The notes below the pieces were generated by a model that searched no databases, was not told the DNA's origin, and saw only the letters and a program-made list of their open reading frames with translations. The position numbers and the translations under genes are program-made. From NCBI RefSeq assembly GCF_001677475.2, contig NZ_CP015229.1: a DNA stretch of 64,000 bases. The stretch is one strand, 5' to 3'. Below, piece after piece: positions 47,540-55,378 of this stretch; within the stretch, counting starts at the first letter, position 1; each line of letters begins with the position of its first letter. The DNA comes from Escherichia coli (GTDB taxonomy: Bacteria > Pseudomonadota > Gammaproteobacteria > Enterobacterales > Enterobacteriaceae).

Positions 47540-47616
47540 CGGCACGTAGCGCAGCCTGGTAGCGCACCGTCATGGGGTGTCGGGGGTCGGAGGTTCAAAT
47601 CCTCTCGTGCCGACCA
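47540..47616 (+). tRNA. proL: tRNA-Pro (anticodon GGG)
   Basis: 77-nt CGGCACGTAGCGCAGCCTGGTAGCGCACCGTCATGGGGTGTCGGGGGTCGGAGGTTCAAATCCTCTCGTGCCGACCA. It has a 7-bp acceptor stem (CGGCACG/CGTGCCG), the T-loop GGTTCAAATCC, the anticodon loop U-GGG-G and an encoded CCA. Confidence 0.97.
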
Positions 47617-47618
47617 AA
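47602..47618 (+). repeat. attL core (direct repeat formed by the 3' end of proL)
   Basis: CTCTCGTGCCGACCAAA is identical to 58597-58613. Extended to 21 bp (AATCCTCTCG... versus AATACTCTCG...) there is one mismatch. Confidence 0.9.
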
Positions 47619-47652
47619 TCGCCCACCGGAAAGCACCGAATAAGACAGGGAT

Positions 47653-47686
47653 AACCCGCTAATCACTTGATTGGCGGGTTTTTTTA
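47653..47686 (+). terminator. Island-borne rho-independent terminator downstream of proL
   Basis: AACCCGC-(14 nt)-GCGGGTT followed by TTTTTTT. It replaces the native proL terminator, which now lies after attR (58621-58651). Confidence 0.7.
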
Positions 47687-47739
47687 TGGTTTTTAGTCAC
47701 CGAACATCACCGGATTTATAAGCTATCAGCCGGATTTTT

Positions 47740-47791
47740 TAGTTATACGTTTAGTTATACGGGCTGGCGTATAACTAAAGCCGTATAACTA
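47740..47791. promoter_or_regulatory. Putative integrase arm-type binding sites / int promoter region (attL arm)
   Basis: The 10-mer TAGTTATACG occurs twice directly (47740, 47752) and twice inverted as CGTATAACTA (47768, 47782), 34-85 bp upstream of the int ATG. Related AAGCTAT(C/A) motifs occur at 47720 and near attR (58514-58535). Confidence 0.6.
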
Positions 47792-47824
47792 AAACCCTGT
47801 TTTTTCGTGTGGAATCATAGACAT

Positions 47825-49066
47825 ATGGCGAGAAAAACACCCCCATTAACCACAGTGCAGATCAAAGCAGCCAGACCAGCGCAAAAGGAGTACACCCTAC
47901 AGGACGGCGGTGGGCTTTTTCTCCTGGTAAAACCGTCCGGATCAAAACTCTGGCGATTTTCCTACTACCGACCATCGGACAAAAAAAGAATATTGCTGAG
48001 TTTTGGATCGCTTGAAGATGTTTCCCTGGCTGATGCCAGAAAACGCCGTAGCGAGTACAGGACGTTAATCAGTGCCGGAACTGACCCGCAGGACCATGAG
48101 AAGAAAAAACGAGAGGCAGAGGCCCGAAGACAAGGGAACACGTTCGAAAATGTGGCGGCGGCATGGTACCAGGTGAAAATCAGCCAGAATCTGGCCCCCA
48201 ACACGATTAAAGACATCTGGCGTTCGCTGGATAAATATGTATTCCCGTTCATCGGCAACACGCCAATAGATACCCTCACCGCTCGCCGCTTTGTTGAGAT
48301 ACTCACACCCATTAAAGCACGCGGCAACCTGGAAACTCTGAAACGCGTTTTACAACGCATCAATGAAGTGATGGATTTTGCTGCCAACAGTGGGCTGATT
48401 GACATCAACACCGCCGCGAACGTCCGCAAGGCATTCCCTTCCCCCACTAAAAAGCATATGCCAACCATCCGACCGGAACAGCTACCGCAGCTAATGCACG
48501 ATTTATCGGTCGCCAGCATAGAACGGCAAACCAGATTGCTAATCGAGTGGCAACTGCTGACCGTAGCACGCCCAGCCGAAGCAGCCGCCGCACGCTGGGA
48601 AGAAATAGATCTCGATGCCGAAACATGGACGATTCCAGCCGGACGCATGAAGATGCGCCGTGACCATGTGATCCCTCTTTGCGGTCAGGCGATAGCTGTA
48701 CTGGAAACAATGAAGCCAATCAGCGCACACAGGGAACATGTTTTTCCCAGCCTTAAAAATCCAATGCTGCCAATGAGCAGCCAGACCGCTAACGCTGCAT
48801 TGCGCCGGATGGGATACGCTGGTGTGCTGGTGTCTCACGGATTACGCGCCATATTCAGTACAGCAGCGAACGAGGAAGGATTCGAGCCGGACGTAATCGA
48901 GGCCGCACTCGCACACGTGGACACGAACGAGGTAAGGCGAGCATATAACCGAAGTAACTACCTGGAAAAGCGCGTGGTGCTTATGCGCTGGTGGGGGGAA
49001 TTTGTAGAGGCCGCAGCTACCGGAGTGACCATAGCCAGTGGTAAAAGGGGTATCCGTGCCGTGTAA
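47825..49066 (+). CDS. int: Tyrosine recombinase, P4-family integrase (DUF4102 arm-binding N-terminus plus catalytic domain)
   Basis: 413 aa from MARKTPPLTTVQIKAARPAQKEYTLQDGGGLFLLVKPSGSKLWRFSYY, a typical P4/CP4-57-type N-terminus. The C-terminus has HGLRAIFST (HxxR) and ...RRAYNRSNY (catalytic Tyr region). It is adjacent to the tRNA attachment site. Confidence 0.92.
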   Translation: MARKTPPLTTVQIKAARPAQKEYTLQDGGGLFLLVKPSGSKLWRFSYYRPSDKKRILLSFGSLEDVSLADARKRRSEYRTLISAGTDPQDHEKKKREAEARRQGNTFENVAAAWYQVKISQNLAPNTIKDIWRSLDKYVFPFIGNTPIDTLTARRFVEILTPIKARGNLETLKRVLQRINEVMDFAANSGLIDINTAANVRKAFPSPTKKHMPTIRPEQLPQLMHDLSVASIERQTRLLIEWQLLTVARPAEAAAARWEEIDLDAETWTIPAGRMKMRRDHVIPLCGQAIAVLETMKPISAHREHVFPSLKNPMLPMSSQTANAALRRMGYAGVLVSHGLRAIFSTAANEEGFEPDVIEAALAHVDTNEVRRAYNRSNYLEKRVVLMRWWGEFVEAAATGVTIASGKRGIRAV

Positions 49067-49164
49067 CTGTACAAAAAACCAGTAAAAGCGATGCAAACCA
49101 TGCCAAACCATCGTATAATTGCCACAAATTTAACGACAAGGCCGGAGTATATGAAAATTCTATT

Positions 49165-49395
49165 ATGCAAAATACCACCGCCTACGGCGAAGGGCTGCAA
49201 CTGGCGTTAATGGCAAATCGTGAATTCTGGTCAACATACGATCCGGAAGACAAATCAACAGCCCCCACAAAACACGAGGTAGTCAGTTTTTTGCGCTCGC
49301 GTGGTGCATCGAAAAATCTGGCTGAAAGCATCGACAAGGTGCTGAGGCCCACCAGCCTTAAATGCGGTGGGCGACCTAAGAAGTGGAAACGGTAA
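49165..49395 (+). CDS. Hypothetical small basic-tailed protein (76 aa)
   Basis: ORF MQNTTAYGEGLQLAL...CGGRPKKWKR is followed by a terminator, with a perfect TATAAT at 49114-49119 upstream. There is no convincing SD, and a competing 19-codon ORF with a better SD starts at 49151. Confidence 0.4.
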   Translation: MQNTTAYGEGLQLALMANREFWSTYDPEDKSTAPTKHEVVSFLRSRGASKNLAESIDKVLRPTSLKCGGRPKKWKR

Positions 49396-49400
49396 TCACA

Positions 49401-49430
49401 ATAGCGGCCCTTTGCGGTCGCTATTTTTTT
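49401..49430 (+). terminator. Rho-independent terminator between the int unit and the alpA unit
   Basis: ATAGCGGCC-CTTTG-CGGTCGCTAT imperfect stem followed by TTTTTTT. Confidence 0.65.
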
Positions 49431-49460
49431 GCAGAAAGAAAAGCGTAATCAATGAGATAA

Positions 49461-49500
49461 AAAACAGTGGGTACCGTTTTAAAACGGTGGGTACTGTTTT
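49461..49500. promoter_or_regulatory. Tandem 20-bp repeat / palindrome (candidate operator) upstream of alpA
   Basis: AAAACAGTGGGTACCGTTTT is followed by AAAACGGTGGGTACTGTTTT (18/20 identical). The junction forms the perfect 16-bp palindrome ACCGTTTTAAAACGGT (49473-49488). It lies 66-105 bp upstream of the alpA GTG. Confidence 0.6.
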
Positions 49501-49565
49501 TCCCGCCCTGCCCTGTTTTACCGTATTTATCACCGGAATACGCCGGATTAACGAGGTAAAACATA

Positions 49566-49772
49566 GTGGAAACAATCAGAAAAATACTTACCCGTCAGGA
49601 AGTAAAAAATATTCTGCGCATCAAGGCAGACAGTTCGCTACAGGACATGATCAACGCCGGAAAATTCCCGAAAGGCTTCAAAATCGGTCTGCGTCGTGTT
49701 GGCTGGTATGAAGATGAAGTGCTGGCCTGGCTGAAAGAGCGCGAGGAAGAAGCGCGCGGAACGGCTGCGTAA
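49566..49772 (+). CDS. alpA: AlpA-family (MerR-like HTH) transcriptional regulator/excisionase-type protein
   Basis: 68 aa (GTG start): ...ILTRQEVKNILRIKADSSLQDMINAGKFPKGFKIGLRRVGWYEDEVLAWL. It fits the AlpA pattern (L.EV...G.S.ST.Y.....G.FP.P.K.G.R.V.W...EV..W). Confidence 0.8.
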   Translation: METIRKILTRQEVKNILRIKADSSLQDMINAGKFPKGFKIGLRRVGWYEDEVLAWLKEREEEARGTAA

Positions 49773-49922
49773 TGGTGTGAGGCGTAACGCGATGAACATA
49801 ACAAAAAGCGCCCCGTTGCCGGAGCGCCCTTGCGAACAATTAACCTACTGCGCAAAAAATGAATCAGTGCAGTGGGATTATATCAACCGTGTAGCGAAGC
49901 GCCACAATTGCCGGATAACAGG

Positions 49923-49951
49923 CAAAACAAAGGCCACCCGCTACGGTGGCC
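49923..49951 (-). terminator. Rho-independent terminator (minus strand) downstream of the RHH gene
   Basis: GGCCACC-CGCTAC-GGTGGCC perfect 7-bp stem. On the minus strand it is followed by TTTGTTTTG. Confidence 0.6.
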
Positions 49952-50054
49952 CTTCGACACAAGCTACACGTTATCCCCAACGCATAAGCGCTGATTACTA
50001 TGCCGTGATTACATCCGGTTGGCAATGTGATCAGTGCGCTGGCTTGCTGGTGGG

Positions 50055-50234
50055 CTATTCCTGCTCTTTGGCCTTGCGTCGCTGGCGGCGTTTGATCTCG
50101 CCTTGCATTGACGCAATGATGAATTGTGATGTGCTTTCGCCTGATTCTTTCACTGATTCCATGGCGTTTACTATTTCGTGTGGTACACGAGCCTTTAGAG
50201 CTTGTGATTTTGCGTTTGTTGTACCCGTTGCCAT
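50055..50234 (-). CDS. Putative ribbon-helix-helix (Arc/CopG-like) DNA-binding protein, candidate island repressor
   Basis: 59 aa, MATGTTNAKSQALKARVPHEIVNAMESVKESGESTSQFIIASMQGEIKRRQRRKAKEQE. It has a strong SD (AGAGGAATAGAAATG), a beta-strand/helix/helix pattern and a basic tail. It is transcribed divergently from the replication operon. Confidence 0.6.
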   Translation of the reverse strand: MATGTTNAKSQALKARVPHEIVNAMESVKESGESTSQFIIASMQGEIKRRQRRKAKEQE

Positions 50235-50433
50235 TTCTATTCCTCTGTTGGATTGGTGGGGGACAGTATACACAGAAAAAGCACAAATAAAACTCTTAAT
50301 GTGGACCACACCTAGAGCATATAGTGGGCCACACCTTGAGGTTATCAAGGTGCATAAATGCAAAGCCCCGCAAGTGTCGTTACCACTCGCAGGGCTTCTA
50401 ACCACCAACGATAGCAGAAGTATCGAGGTAGCT

Positions 50434-50640
50434 ATGTTAAATCATACCACACACCCGCAAGGGCGGGACTCGCACAACCTGAATAAATACATCTGGCGTT
50501 TTATCGCTCTGAGCACGGCACAACCGCGCGTGATTACCATTGAGGCCACCAGCGAACAGGAAGCACGTCAGCAATCTCCTGATGGCTGCGTGATGGTATT
50601 CGCCGCCCGTATTCGTCAGGAGGTGCGCCATGTGCAATAA
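50434..50640 (+). CDS. Icd-like small protein (first gene of the rightward early operon)
   Basis: 68 aa, MLNHTTHPQGRDSHNLNKYIWRFIALSTAQPRVITIEATSEQEARQQSPDGCVMVFAARIRQEVRHVQ, with the SD GAGG 5 nt upstream. The composition and C-terminal ...EQEAR...ARI.QEVRH motif resemble proteins I recall as annotated host cell division inhibitor Icd-like in P4-like elements. This is memory-based. It is the only credible part of the 287-aa track ORF. Confidence 0.45.
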   Translation: MLNHTTHPQGRDSHNLNKYIWRFIALSTAQPRVITIEATSEQEARQQSPDGCVMVFAARIRQEVRHVQ

Positions 50641-50866
50641 CACCCGTCCGGACGCAGCCGCCGAGGCTATCAGAACGCTGATGGACGCGCTGATTGATAT
50701 TTCTGTTATCGCAGACAAGGCGCATAAGCACGCCACCAGCGAAACAGAATATGCCGGGGCTTTCGTTCCTCACTCACTGGCTGTTATGCAATTTAGTGCT
50801 GATATGGCGCTGAATGAGGCCAGCAAAATTATCATGGCTGATATGGAGGTGGTGAGCCATGAATAA
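50630..50866 (+). CDS. Hypothetical protein (78 aa)
   Basis: Its ATG overlaps the upstream stop (ATGTGCAATAA), indicating translational coupling. The sequence is helical and acidic, with no recognisable family. Confidence 0.5.
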   Translation: MCNNTRPDAAAEAIRTLMDALIDISVIADKAHKHATSETEYAGAFVPHSLAVMQFSADMALNEASKIIMADMEVVSHE

Positions 50867-51107
50867 TCATGATTATGCGGGGGCGATTATGCGAAATAAA
50901 CGTGATATTGAAGACCTGGCATTTGAAGCCCTGCACTCTGCGAAAAAGATCAGGGAAGTCGTCAATATGTGGATGAACAGCCTTAGCACCGATAAATCCG
51001 ATAGCAGAGAGGAAATTCTTATTTCTTTGTTGTTAGACCTGGCAAATACACAGGTTTCTCTGACATCTGATATTGAACTCGCCGCTAAAAAGCTGCCTCT
51101 GGAGTAA
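50859..51107 (+). CDS. Hypothetical protein (82 aa)
   Basis: Its start overlaps the previous gene by 8 nt (ATGAATAA). No recognisable family. Confidence 0.5.
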   Translation: MNNHDYAGAIMRNKRDIEDLAFEALHSAKKIREVVNMWMNSLSTDKSDSREEILISLLLDLANTQVSLTSDIELAAKKLPLE

Positions 51108-51113
51108 AAAAAC

Positions 51114-51413
51114 ATGAAAAAGAAAAATTCTGGCTTTACTGCCAGTGGTCTCCCTCGGCCTGAAATCCGCCCCGGCGATATTTTCCGGGATAACTACGGC
51201 GGCACGGTAACGATTAAAAGTATTGCCGGACGGTGCGTTACTTACCGCCGTGATGGGTACAGCTACGACTGCGTGATGCCTGTTTATCAGTTCCGGCGTG
51301 ATTTTTCACTGATACAGGCCACACCACGCAAACAGCCCACCAGCAACGCAAAGGCACGGGCAAATATTCAGAAAATGAAAAACATGATTAACGCATTCAG
51401 GGGCACAAAATGA
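51114..51413 (+). CDS. DUF4222-like small protein (99 aa)
   Basis: PGDIFRDNYGGTVTIKSIAGRCVTYRRDGYSYDCVMPVYQFRRDF fits the pattern D.(Y/F)RD..G..VT......V.F.RDGY...C..P...F...F that I associate with prophage DUF4222 proteins. This is memory-based. Confidence 0.5.
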   Translation: MKKKNSGFTASGLPRPEIRPGDIFRDNYGGTVTIKSIAGRCVTYRRDGYSYDCVMPVYQFRRDFSLIQATPRKQPTSNAKARANIQKMKNMINAFRGTK

Positions 51414-53215
51414 AACTGGCACCGAACTTAAAAAAACAGCCACACGACAAAATGACCGAAGTCATTATTTTTGCAGGTAGTGATGCCTGGGCGCACGCGA
51501 AACAGTGGCAGGAACAGGACGGGCGACTTGCTGGCGACAACGTGCCACCTGTATGGCTGGGAGACAGCCAGCTTGACGAACTGGCAGACCTGAAAATTAT
51601 CGACGATGGTCGCTATTGTGTCCGGCTGTACAAGGCAGGCCACATCAAGCCGTCAAATATTAATGCCATCGGGCAAAAGCTGGCGGCGGCAGGTGTACGG
51701 GATGCGAGATATTACCCTGAGGGAATGCACAGCCAGAAGCGGGAGGAGTGGCGCGAATATCTGGAGCGTGCGCGCCAGAATCTTTCTGATGGTCTGGTTA
51801 TTCAGCTTCCTGTTAAGAAAAAAACAGAAGACAGCGCCGCACCACTGGCGCTTAACCAGATGGGAGCAAGCCAGCGCGGCGAAGTTCTCCTGGCACGTTA
51901 TGGCGGCGAACTGGCAATTAATGCGGACTCTGACACCGTTCACCACTACAACGGCGTTGTATGGGAGCCGGTACAGGATAAAGAGTTACAGCGGGCTATG
52001 GCACAGATTTTTATTGATGCGGAGATCAGTTATTCGCAGAACGCCATCAAATCGGCGGTCGATACCATGAAGTTAAGTTTGCCCGTAATGGGGAATACCG
52101 CCCGTAACCTGATTGGATTCAGTAACGGTGTTTTTGATACCCGGACAGGCGATTTTCGGGAGCATGACAAAAACGACTGGCTGTTAATTGCCAGTGAATT
52201 ACCGTTCAGCCCGCCAGCAGAGGGGGAAACGCTGGCAACGCATGCGCCGAATTTCTGGAAATGGTTGCGCCGTTCGGTGGCAGAGAATGGCCGTAAAGCG
52301 GATCGCGTACTGGCGGCGTTATTCATGGTGCTGGCGAACCGATACGACTGGCAGTTATTTCTTGAGGTAACGGGGCCGGGTGGAAGCGGTAAAAGCGTAA
52401 TGGCGGAGATTTGCACCATGCTGGCGGGTAAGGCCAACACGGTATCGGCAAGCATGAAGGCGCTGGAAGATGCCAGGGAACGCGCGTTAGTGGTTGGCTT
52501 TTCGCTGATTATCATGCCGGATATGACCCGCTACGCTGGTGATGGTGCAGGTATTAAGGCCATTACAGGCGGTGACAAAGTGGCAATCGACCCGAAACAT
52601 AAAGCTCCCTACTCAACACGCATTCAGGCGGTCGTGCTGGCGGTGAACAATAACGCCATGTCATTCAGTGACCGCAGTGGGGGGATCTCACGTCGTCGGG
52701 TGATATTCAATTTTTCGGAGGTTGTACCGGAGAACGAACGCGACCCCATGCTGGCAGAAAAAATAGAAGGAGAGCTGGCGGTTGTGATTCGCCACCTGCT
52801 TACTCGTTTTTCTGACCAGGACAAAGCTAAACGCCTGCTGTATGAGCAGCAGAAATCAGAAGAAGCTCTGGTGATAAAACGCGAGGGCGATTCGCTGGTG
52901 GACTTCTGCGGCTATCTCATGTCGTCGGTAATGTGTGATGGTCTGTTAGTGGGTAATGCCGAAATTATTCCGTTCAGTCCGCGCAGATATCTTTATCACG
53001 CCTATCTGGCATATATGAGGGCACACGGATTCGGTAAACCTGTAACACTGACGCGCTTCGGTAAAGATATGCCGGGGGCAATGGCGGAATATGGCAGGGA
53101 GTATATGAAACGGAAAACGAAGCACGGTTTGCGTTCAAATGTGACCCTGACAGAGGATTCAGAAGACTGGATGCCATCATGTACATCGGTCACAAATGAC
53201 GATGGAAAAAATTAA
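51410..53215 (+). CDS. Replication initiator: primase / SF3 (D5-like) helicase fusion (Pri-Rep)
   Basis: 601 aa with Walker A VTGPGGSGKS and a Walker B-like LIIMPD. The length and architecture are typical of P4-alpha/PICI Pri-Rep proteins. Its ATGA overlaps the upstream gene and it is followed immediately by iterons. Confidence 0.8.
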   Translation: MKLAPNLKKQPHDKMTEVIIFAGSDAWAHAKQWQEQDGRLAGDNVPPVWLGDSQLDELADLKIIDDGRYCVRLYKAGHIKPSNINAIGQKLAAAGVRDARYYPEGMHSQKREEWREYLERARQNLSDGLVIQLPVKKKTEDSAAPLALNQMGASQRGEVLLARYGGELAINADSDTVHHYNGVVWEPVQDKELQRAMAQIFIDAEISYSQNAIKSAVDTMKLSLPVMGNTARNLIGFSNGVFDTRTGDFREHDKNDWLLIASELPFSPPAEGETLATHAPNFWKWLRRSVAENGRKADRVLAALFMVLANRYDWQLFLEVTGPGGSGKSVMAEICTMLAGKANTVSASMKALEDARERALVVGFSLIIMPDMTRYAGDGAGIKAITGGDKVAIDPKHKAPYSTRIQAVVLAVNNNAMSFSDRSGGISRRRVIFNFSEVVPENERDPMLAEKIEGELAVVIRHLLTRFSDQDKAKRLLYEQQKSEEALVIKREGDSLVDFCGYLMSSVMCDGLLVGNAEIIPFSPRRYLYHAYLAYMRAHGFGKPVTLTRFGKDMPGAMAEYGREYMKRKTKHGLRSNVTLTEDSEDWMPSCTSVTNDDGKN

Positions 53216-53228
53216 ACTTATGGAATAA

Positions 53229-53459
53229 CTGTTCACCACTGTTCACCCTGTCATAAATGTCTTTTATATCAGTACATTATAGGGTGAACAGTTATTTGTG
53301 AACTGTTCACCAAACTATTCACTGTTCACCTTTTTGATTATTTATTGAGCTTTAAGGGTGAACAGTGGTGAACAGTTGGTGAATAGTTTTTGTGAAACTG
53401 TTCACCCCTTAACATCATGAATAAAAAGGGAAAATAGCAAAAGGTGAACAGGTGAAGAG
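53229..53459. repeat. Iteron cluster, putative island replication origin
   Basis: There are nine perfect copies of the 9-mer CTGTTCACC / GGTGAACAG. Forward copies are at 53229, 53239, 53303, 53322 and 53398. Reverse copies are at 53283, 53357, 53367 and 53443. Three degenerate copies are at 53315, 53378 and 53451. A/T-rich spacers are interspersed, and the cluster lies directly 3' of the primase-helicase gene. Confidence 0.85.
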
Positions 53460-53502
53460 TTAAAATGCAAAAATTTTATTTTATTGCTGTGAGGTAAAGC
53501 CT

Positions 53503-53748
53503 GTGACAACGAAGCACGCAAAAAAACCACAATCACACGCCCTTGATTTGACAGAACACTGGCTGAGGGTGGCGATAAAAATCATCGACCGCAACGCGGG
53601 AGAAGGATACGCGAAAGCGCATCCCGAACTGATAAGCGCATTCATGACCACGGCGGCGGCAAATTTTGCCACACTGACAGAACGGGAGATTGCCGAAGCG
53701 GAACAGGTGACAACCATCAACGTTAAAACCGGAGAGCAGACAGCATGA
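53503..53748 (+). CDS. Hypothetical protein (81 aa)
   Basis: GTG-initiated ORF whose stop overlaps the ssb-like ATG (ATGA). No recognisable family. Confidence 0.45.
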   Translation: MTTKHAKKPQSHALDLTEHWLRVAIKIIDRNAGEGYAKAHPELISAFMTTAAANFATLTEREIAEAEQVTTINVKTGEQTA

Positions 53749-54044
53749 CAGCACAGATAGCGGCTTGCGGGCGGCTGGTGGCTGACCCGCAGTTAAAGAC
53801 CACCAGCAAAGGGACACAAATGGCGATGGCGAGTATGGCGGTTCCCCTGCCGTGCAGCCAGGCAGATGACGGAACGGCGACGATGTGGTTATCTGTCCTG
53901 GCGTTTGGCAGACAGGCCGACGCACTGGCAAAACACCACAAAGGCGAACTCCTGAGCGTGGCGGGTAACATGCAGGTGAGCCAGTGGACAGGCCAGAACG
54001 GCGCGACCGGGCGGCAAAAAAGGTCAACAGGGCCAGGCCACTGA
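53745..54044 (+). CDS. ssb: SSB-like OB-fold protein, apparently frameshifted (the conserved C-terminal tail continues in the +1 frame to 54111)
   Basis: IAACGRLVADPQLKTTSKGTQMAMASMAV...WLSVLAFGRQADALAKHHKGELLSVAGNMQVSQWTGQNG parallels E. coli SSB (ILVGNLGQDPEVRYMPNG...[40 protein letters not shown]). The +1 frame from 54010 reads GGKKGQQGQATDALNRAKQQSGNDEPYGDNIPF*, which carries the SSB acidic tip motif D-x-IPF. Confidence 0.7.
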   Translation: MTAQIAACGRLVADPQLKTTSKGTQMAMASMAVPLPCSQADDGTATMWLSVLAFGRQADALAKHHKGELLSVAGNMQVSQWTGQNGATGRQKRSTGPGH

Positions 54045-54128
54045 CGCACTGAACAGGGCAAAACAACAGTCAGGGAATGATGAACCGTACGGCGATAATA
54101 TACCGTTTTAAATTCTGCAAACAAAAAG

Positions 54129-54157
54129 ATGCCGGAAAAAAATAGATTTTCCGGCAT
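54129..54157. terminator. Strong hairpin separating the replication module from the head module
   Basis: ATGCCGGAAAA-(7 nt)-TTTTCCGGCAT perfect 11-bp stem. There is no U-tract on the plus strand (T-rich on the minus strand), so terminator function is uncertain. Confidence 0.4.
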
Positions 54158-54322
54158 GCTACATAAATCCCGACCAAAGGAAGTAAATACATTAACACGA
54201 ATTATCAGCACTGAAGTTGTCACGGCATATTTTATACAACATTGCACTTGGTTGCATGTATTCGCATAGCAGACATCGGTAATAGAATATATTCACAATT
54301 ATTTGTAATGAATGTAAAGAGG

Positions 54323-55369
54323 ATGAGTATGGTTGATTTATATTCGCCTACACAGCTTGTGCAGGTGGCTAATGCTGAAGATGTGCAAAAAAAATTAAAT
54401 GCGTTGTTTACCAGTTTGTTTTTCACTCGCTCGGTAATGTTTGAATCGAGAGACATTATTCTTGATACGATCGACGATCCAAATATCCCGATCGCGGCGT
54501 TTTGCTCTCCTATGGTGGGCAGTAAAGTTTCACGAGATGAGGGATACGAATCAAAAACAATTCGCCCTGGCTATATGAAACCGAAAAGCAGTATTGATCC
54601 AAATAAGTTAGCTGTGCGCCCTGCTGGTGTATCACCTGAGCAATACAATGCTTTTGGGGCGCGTAATATTAAAGTTAAACAGGCGATTGTAAATCAGGCT
54701 AAAGCTATTCGTGCACGTATTGAATGGCTTGCTGTTCAGGCAATCACAACGGGGAAAAATATCATTGAGGGCGATGGTATTGAACGTTATGAGCTGGACT
54801 GGAATATAAAACCACAAAATATCATCACTCAGTCTGGCGGTACTGAGTGGTCAGGTAAGGATAAAGAAACTTTTGATCCAAATGATGATATTGAGAGCTA
54901 CGCAGAATTTAGTGAGGGCGTCACTAATATCATCATTATGGGTGGTAATGTATGGAAGAAATACCGTTCATTCAGAGCGATAAAAGAGGCTTTGGATACC
55001 CGTCGTGGTTCTAATTCCGAACTGGAAACGGCCCTTAAAGACCTTGGTGATTCGGTGAGTTTTAAAGGGTATATGGGCGATGTTGCGATTGTTGTTTACA
55101 GCGGGCGTTATACCGACGAGGACGGAACAGAAAAACATTTCCTTGATCCTGATTTGATGGTGCTTGGCAATACGGCTCTTCAGGGGATTGTCGCCTATGG
55201 CGGTATTCAGGATCCGGAGCTAATCCGAATGGGGCTGACTAAAGCCGAACTTGCACCGAAAAACTATATTGTGCCTGGTGATCCGGCTATTGAATATGTG
55301 CAGACACATTCAGCACCACAGCCAATACCGGCCCGCATCAATCGTTTTGTTACCGTTCGCATTGGCTAA
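54323..55369 (+). CDS. Major capsid protein, lambda gpE family
   Basis: 348 aa from MSMVDLYSPTQLV (lambda gpE: MSMYTTAQLL), collinear over the full length. The blocks ITQSGGTEWSGKDKETFDPNDDIESYA and LDTRRGSNSELETALKDLGDSVSFKGYMGDVAIVVYSGRY are nearly identical to gpE as I remember it. The SD AAAGAGG is present, and an alternative start is at 54329. Confidence 0.85.
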   Translation: MSMVDLYSPTQLVQVANAEDVQKKLNALFTSLFFTRSVMFESRDIILDTIDDPNIPIAAFCSPMVGSKVSRDEGYESKTIRPGYMKPKSSIDPNKLAVRPAGVSPEQYNAFGARNIKVKQAIVNQAKAIRARIEWLAVQAITTGKNIIEGDGIERYELDWNIKPQNIITQSGGTEWSGKDKETFDPNDDIESYAEFSEGVTNIIIMGGNVWKKYRSFRAIKEALDTRRGSNSELETALKDLGDSVSFKGYMGDVAIVVYSGRYTDEDGTEKHFLDPDLMVLGNTALQGIVAYGGIQDPELIRMGLTKAELAPKNYIVPGDPAIEYVQTHSAPQPIPARINRFVTVRIG

Positions 55370-55378
55370 GGGGGAGCA

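Follow-up and report, generated by a model that had tools for sequence, protein, structure and literature searches.

The island and its genes

The window, by which we mean the whole 64,000-nucleotide stretch of Escherichia coli DNA analyzed here, contains an island of ~11 kb (47598..58620, + strand) that its att repeats and gene content place among the PICIs of the EcCICFT073 type. The island is framed by a 28-nt direct repeat, of which the left copy (47598-47625) lies at the 3' end of tRNA-Pro(ggg) (47540-47616) and the right copy (58593-58620) is 86% identical to it, and it occupies a specific site in a chromosomal flank with yejO, narP and the ccm genes, whose identity to E. coli is 98.2%. 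A tyrosine integrase gene, int (47807-49066), is located at the tRNA end. Also within the island are a gene for a DUF4222 protein and a gene (51410..53215, + strand) for a D5-type primase-helicase of 601 aa, which is the island replication protein. Ten iteron-like GGTGAAYAG repeats, distributed on both strands, occur between the stop codon of the primase gene and the small gene orf81 (53229..53451). The entire window has 11 matches to this motif versus 0.7 expected, and the cluster probably represents the iteron-type replication origin of the island. On the other side of ssb come the genes for capsid E (lambda E-like, 54329-55369), a decoration D-like protein (55379-55720), AlpA (55732-56115) and a Nu1-like small terminase, TerS (56305-56859).

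Among the island ORFs scanned, the only phage-type modules identified were AlpA, the D5 primase, capsid E, decoration D and the Nu1-like TerS, and there were no genes for portal, tail or lysis functions. Within this coverage, AlpA and a primase gene beside a putative origin are accompanied by an incomplete set of virion genes. Homologues of capsid (c1499) and head-decoration (c1500) proteins are described for the EcCICFT073-type PICIs by Fillol-Salom et al. 2018 (PMC6092414), and the window island resembles the type described there in its integrase beside a tRNA gene, its flanking direct repeats, its AlpA, its primase-type gene followed by iterons and its capsid and head-decoration homologues. 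It differs in that its copy of ssb is broken, and as a PICI it would depend on a helper phage for induction, replication and packaging. Compared with the intact relative NZ_CP148445, the other genes of the island are unchanged in length, and ssb is the only one that is broken. A literature search on what SSB does in PICIs found nothing specific.

Some further features of the island can be mentioned here. An identical 17-mer, ATGAATAAAAAGGGAAA, is found at 53417-53433 and at 56252-56268, in both cases in intergenic DNA, upstream of orf81 and ssb in the first and upstream of the small-terminase gene in the second, and the two copies may represent a common regulatory or promoter element. In an ORF of 287 aa (49777-50640), the C-terminal domain is similar to phage transcriptional-repressor families (phrog_6196, E 5e-53), and the N-terminal 200 aa have no match. 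A gene resembling the PerC family of activators (57681-58052) lies toward the right end of the island.

The ssb locus

The 81-aa orf81 (53503..53748, + strand) belongs to phrog_1231, a family of unknown function, and it retains its position 5' of ssb in homologous islands. Its stop codon overlaps the start of ssb in an ATGA, by which the two genes are translationally coupled. The ssb reading frame itself (53745..54044, + strand) begins with the ATG at 53745, ends with the TGA at 54042-54044 and specifies a product of 99 aa. The initial annotation of this DNA had assigned the gene to the SSB family, and the assignment is borne out by the match of the 99-aa product to the OB-fold profile PF00436 (51.5 bits versus a cut-off of 26, E 1e-13), although this match covers profile positions 3-91 of 104 only. 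Alignment with intact homologues indicates that residues 1-86 are the native part of the OB fold, with strands 1-4 and the helix, and that residues 87-99, ATGRQKRSTGPGH, are 13 missense residues that result from a shift of frame.

The 3' end of the ancestral gene persists as a relic (54003..54111, + strand). Relative to the ATG, the relic is read in the +1 frame, where it specifies a disordered linker followed by the acidic GDNIPF tip. Translation confirms that this frame, separate from the one that stops at 54042-54044, is open from 53980, reads ...GGKKGQQGQATDALNRAKQQSGNDEPYGDNIPF* and ends at 54111, as had been noted initially. By direct reading of the sequence, the relic lacks a start codon (ATG, GTG or TTG) of its own, and the list of ORFs for the window includes none of at least 30 aa on the + strand that ends at 54111.

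A 56-bp deletion between direct repeats

The break in the frame was initially ascribed to the gain or loss of one nucleotide in a G3/A6 tract (54009-54021). Comparisons with related genes place the lesion elsewhere and give it a different nature. A 651-bp query taken from around ssb has matches in 1,707 complete E. coli genomes, and the best of these matches cover the query in two pieces that together span ~704 bp, indicating that the window is shorter by ~56 bp; an intact homologue with 97.9% identity measures 704 bp where the window has 649 bp. When the window was aligned with three fetched homologues (one intact and two with nonsense stops), it differed from the intact 423-nt gene of NZ_CP025859 (WP_000126631.1, 140 aa) by a single gap of 56 bp and by zero further indels. 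The intact gene has two copies of the 11-bp sequence GCCAGAACGGC, at gene nucleotides 248-258 and 304-314, which are 56 bp apart. The window has lost exactly one of these copies plus the 45 bp that separate them, and the sole copy that remains (53992..54002, + strand) marks the junction. The coding sequence lacks codons 87-104 as well as two bases from codon 105, and everything downstream is shifted by two bases. The A6 tract, at 54016..54021 on the + strand, is as long as in the wild type, and the lesion is outside it. Of the several causes proposed in the initial annotation, it is the inactivating mutation that agrees with these results.

Spontaneous deletions that arise by slipped mispairing between short direct repeats have their classic description in the lacI gene of E. 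coli. The loss of one repeat together with the intervening sequence is the signature of such repeat-mediated events, and the deletion described here matches the lacI type in this respect, with repeats in the window family of 11-12 bp, 56 bp apart, as it does in the appearance of an identical deletion on haplotypes that differ from each other. We see no notable difference between the two cases, with the qualification that the mechanism is deduced for the window from the end points. A slipped-strand or microhomology-mediated mechanism is what these end points suggest, and other repeat-mediated routes would yield the same sequence.

Taken together, the evidence makes it very probable that the window ssb is a loss-of-function pseudogene of an accessory PICI ssb, created through a repeat-mediated deletion of 56 bp in an island that resides at tRNA-Pro(ggg) by yejO and narP; nothing that we encountered contradicts this explanation. 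The ancestral gene encoded a 140-aa SSB whose OB fold (residues 1 to ~104) was followed by a disordered linker and then by an acidic tip, ...GDNIPF. An event between the two copies of GCCAGAACGGC removed 56 bp and with them the last beta-strand of the barrel, and the resulting change of frame leads to a stop after the 13 missense residues. The frame for the linker and tip is still open only because the deletion is recent.

Occurrence of the allele in other assemblies

The deletion is a property of the DNA rather than of one assembly. The exact 99-aa product is encoded on 22 contigs, which derive from isolate assemblies at NCBI, from SRA runs assembled by Logan and from ENA metagenomes. Identical DNA over all 367 nt of the locus occurs on about 22 independent contigs, in records of NCBI, Logan, two ENA metagenomes and IMG/VR, among them four of the homologues that we collected (L004-L007) and an IMG/VR contig (L178). 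The assembly GCA_016118665.1 has zero mismatches to the window over 20 kb. A sequencing or assembly error in a gene that is really intact was among the causes first considered, and might have been entertained on account of the nearby A6 and G3 homopolymers and the lack of the allele from complete RefSeq genomes of E. coli. Such an error is excluded by the recovery of the identical 367 nt in independent isolate, Logan, metagenome and IMG/VR assemblies, and the lesion has the form of a clean deletion of 56 bp and not of a miscounted homopolymer.

The allele is also rare. Searched with a 121-nt query and with a 40-nt query restricted to the junction, 5,426 complete E. coli genomes yielded no contiguous match to the junction of the deletion, and of the 828 in which this stretch is present, 0 had a contiguous junction. 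The junction query did produce 58 single-piece matches of 36 nt at 88.9% identity, which we rejected as chance extensions inside intact genes (H98 was checked).

In both NCBI and UniRef the 99-aa product bears the name "single-stranded DNA-binding protein [Escherichia coli]". Several E. coli records present it as a normal CDS, and we would correct this annotation to that of a truncated pseudogene.

The A6 tract and the two reading frames

Removal of one base within ACCGGGCGGCAAAAAAGG (54006-54023) would indeed join the two frames, as was initially pointed out, but the resulting 121-aa fusion does not correspond to the native protein, which has 140 aa in intact homologues. All three aligned homologues, whether intact or interrupted by nonsense stops, have an A6 tract as long as that of the window, and the sequence GGCGGCAAAAAAGG is present in 70 of the 80 best-matching IMG/VR loci, 79 of which have an intact ssb that specifies 140-149 aa and ends in IPF. 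With intact genes having this very tract, the frameshift must lie elsewhere, and we rejected an indel of 1 nt at G3/A6 as the lesion. A homopolymer that lies beside a break in a reading frame need not be its cause.

The same observations bear on the idea that slippage at A6/G3 reversibly switches the gene between tip-less and tipped forms of SSB. The suspicion that fell on the A-run is not without basis, since the tract does mutate in rare relatives: one of these (L159) has A7 and a product that ends in ...GGKKRPAGAGH*, and another (P0147) has A5 and a product that ends in ...GGKKASRARLLTH. These are rare and separate null alleles of other islands, however, and for the window itself the suspicion is not supported. 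The window tract is wild-type, all examined copies of the window allele are identical and have A6, and no change in the tract could bring back the deleted invariant strand, even where it restored the frame of the tail. A tract of six A residues is short for an efficient contingency locus, and tract length does not toggle the frame among the close relatives. Phase variation is thus a most improbable explanation for the state of the window gene.

We attach even less weight to programmed +1 ribosomal frameshifting or transcriptional slippage, by which the split gene would still yield some of a 121-aa product with the IPF tip. The A-run does fall where the two frames overlap by 65 nt (53980-54044), as such a mechanism would want, but the split into two frames is a derived and rare state that is not conserved. 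The comparison with homologous islands that the initial annotation had proposed turned up, overwhelmingly, one fused ORF, of 136-149 aa, rather than two frames. By direct reading, frame 0 runs CAA-AAA-AGG through the tract, a reading that departs from the canonical X XXY YYZ heptamer, and no stimulatory RNA structure is predicted after the A-run, where the fold of 54010-54111 has an energy of -19 kcal/mol versus a mean of -19.7 for shuffled sequences (z 0.25). Any product of frameshifting would, furthermore, be without its last strand.

A different repeat in the island is truly variable in length, to judge from the sequences compared. The tetranucleotide repeat (GGCT)11 is found at 58164-58207 in the window, near the right end of the island between the PerC-like gene and attR, and it is represented by (GGCT)15 in two islands (L219, 14420-14479; L221, 8956-9015) that are otherwise virtually identical to that of the window, with 0-1 mismatch over 14-20 kb. 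This repeat appears to be a better candidate for phase variation than the A6 tract.

Effect of the deletion on the SSB fold

The relationship between the intact island protein and the chromosomal SSB of E. coli (PDB 1eyg, 1kaw, 1qvc, 1eqq) is detectable in sequence (E 1e-4 to 5e-4) but distant. In both, an N-terminal OB fold is joined by a disordered linker to an acidic tip that ends in IPF, and the two differ in length (178 aa for the chromosomal protein versus 140 aa for the island protein) and in that the latter is the product of an accessory gene, of which the window copy has lost both fold and tip. Much closer to the window gene are accessory SSBs of E. coli mobile elements (among them WP_000126631.1 and WP_029397774.1, both of 140 aa), which are 96-98% identical to it over the parts retained and agree with it in their slot between the 81-aa gene and the capsid gene, in their A6 tract and in the sequence of their GDNIPF tip. 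The window gene departs from them by the absence of the 56 bp (codons 87-104 plus 2 nt), by its shifted frame and by its 99-aa product. The truncation is also reflected in the profile scores, in that the intact homologue passes the cut-off of TIGR00621 (57.1 versus 53.95) and the window product, at 42, falls below it.

An AlphaFold2 model of an intact homologue (P0002), built with an alignment of 16 sequences, has a mean pLDDT of 77, with values >83 throughout residues 1-100. It predicts strands at residues 3-11, 16-19, 25-36, 44-54, 69-82 and 88-101, a helix at 55-62 and disorder at 105-140. The last strand, 88-101, is modeled with pLDDT of 83-93; residues 89-103 (RQGWQVIADSVISAR) are invariant or nearly so in 16 homologues that have 75-94% identity, and solved SSB structures align with the intact protein up to residue ~100. 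According to this model, the residues deleted from the window protein include the entire last strand of the barrel. The OB barrel of the 99-aa product is therefore incomplete, and the D-x-IPF tip is out of frame with it, given that frame 0 comes to its stop at 54044 and the tip is encoded in the +1 frame. It had been proposed initially that the break merely uncouples an OB fold from its tip; the tip is certainly in another frame, but the fold itself is deprived of its last strand. Because that strand (codons 87-104) is deleted, a 121-aa fusion with a repaired frame would remain defective. These considerations lead us to infer that the window ssb has lost its function.

Intact and broken members of the family

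Hundreds of clusters of 136-149 aa annotated as SSB are known from E. coli, E. albertii, Shigella, Salmonella and Citrobacter. One relative (P0014, 149 aa) has an in-frame tandem duplication of the 8 aa VSVAGNMQ, a change of the slippage type like the A7 and A5 tracts. The best 80 IMG/VR loci cited above were ranked by the quality of their matches and are consequently biased to intact genes. We replaced them with a sample of 120 IMG/VR contigs that have an exact 28-mer from upstream of the lesion, a choice that is independent of whether the gene is intact. Two of the 120 loci were cut by contig ends; among the other 118, ssb was intact in 109 and broken in 9. All but one of the 109 intact genes end in IPF, the exception ending in GDNIQF. 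In 42 distinct intact alleles, pN/pS was 0.12 overall, 0.08 in the segment that corresponds to the deletion and 0.10 in the tip. The overall value indicates that the intact gene is functional and under the constraint of purifying selection.

The broken copies, ~8% of the sampled members of the family, have varied lesions. Three have nonsense codons (L099, L147 and L167), one has a 5' frameshift (L207), two have rearrangements of the tail (L114, and L172 with a rearranged or duplicated tail) and one is the A7 frameshift mentioned above (L159, IMG/VR 2802429246_000010). The remaining two are the window allele itself (L178) and L132, in which a different haplotype has this 56-bp deletion. Outside of this sample, the A5-type frameshift is represented by the protein P0147, and P0122, which occurs in 37 blocks of the contig index, is a third variant with the 56-bp deletion. 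Annotated ssb pseudogenes were also encountered in NZ_AP022177 (L002), with CAG changed to TAG at codon 127, and in NZ_CM128601 (L003), with TGG changed to TAG at codon 48 and with a gene of the ProQ/FinO family 3' of ssb in place of the capsid gene; these two make up 2/3 of the first complete-genome homologues that were inspected.

A comparison of disruption among island genes by tblastn found ssb broken in 9/118 cases, capsid in 0/33 and decoration in 1/33, numbers that are too few to show a faster decay of ssb. Only the capsid and decoration genes could be used for this purpose, with primase, orf81, terS and other genes being confounded by mosaic divergence.

Probable recurrence and spread of the deletion

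The three haplotypes that have the 56-bp deletion differ from each other by 7-15% (88/667, 98/673 and 49/669 positions in the pairwise comparisons), and each is closer to an intact allele, with 19-34 differences, than to the other two. Intact relatives of the L001 and L030 types have a perfect repeat of 11-12 bp, and in others, such as L217 and L045, the second copy is degenerate. The simplest reading of this pattern is that the deletion probably recurred independently at a repeat hot spot. It is also possible that a short patch has spread by recombination between islands, in view of the resemblance of the window to L001 locally around the junction and to L217 elsewhere.

The window allele is found in three settings. 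The first is the tRNA-Pro/yejO site. The second (L220, Logan SRR30045146_11) has a different integrase and left arm and another chromosomal site, with a LysR-family regulator, M20 peptidases and a Smr-domain gene as neighbors, and it is 99.2% identical to the window over the 7.2 kb that they share. In the third (L223), the backbone is only 97% identical. The islands with P0122 have a RepA-type helicase and a protease-capsid fusion and occupy two integration sites. Since null alleles persist and move among mosaic islands at different sites, the island ssb appears to be dispensable, and SSB of the host or functions of a helper phage would presumably serve the replication of the island in its place. 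The persistence of these alleles in several island backgrounds could reflect neutrality or some benefit.

A benefit would exist if the loss or truncation of the island SSB were advantageous in itself, for which possible grounds include less competition with host SSB for its partners, evasion of a defence that senses foreign SSB or a dominant-negative effect of the OB fragment. The recurrence on three divergent haplotypes, the occurrence of each null allele at two integration sites and the ~8% of disrupted family members with their varied lesions speak for such an advantage. The 11-12-bp repeat is sufficient to account for the recurrence, however; intact alleles predominate under strong purifying selection, the null alleles are rare (0/828 of the complete genomes that carry the stretch), and the figures of 0/33 for capsid and 9/118 for ssb are raw counts, beside other island genes whose mosaic divergence confounds the comparison. 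We find no positive support for an adaptive or neo-functional truncation, and selection for the truncated allele seems decidedly unlikely.

The broader proposition, that ssb of E. coli PICIs is a recurrent target of adaptive inactivation in which the 11-12-bp repeats and the A6 tract serve as mutational hot spots that repeatedly yield ssb-null satellites, is scarcely more probable. If it were true, a foreign SSB with an IPF tip might be costly to the host or sensed by anti-phage defence, and ssb-null satellites would nonetheless persist, recombine and move between integration sites.

The window gene is, on the reading that we prefer, an ordinary pseudogene in a phage satellite of an already known kind, and it is mildly notable only for the recurrence of the same deletion and for the apparent dispensability of the PICI ssb. 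Recurrent ssb nulls, in the form of the 56-bp deletion on three haplotypes, nonsense codons and A-tract changes, travel with mosaic islands and offer a small clue to the reliance of satellites on replication proteins of the host or helper.

The modules of these PICIs are strongly mosaic in other respects as well. The block of primase, ssb, capsid and terS genes in L220 is 99.2% identical to that of the window next to its other integrase and left arm, and nearly identical ssb regions are also found (L225-L230) in islands that have a RepA-type helicase and a protease-capsid fusion of 637 aa.
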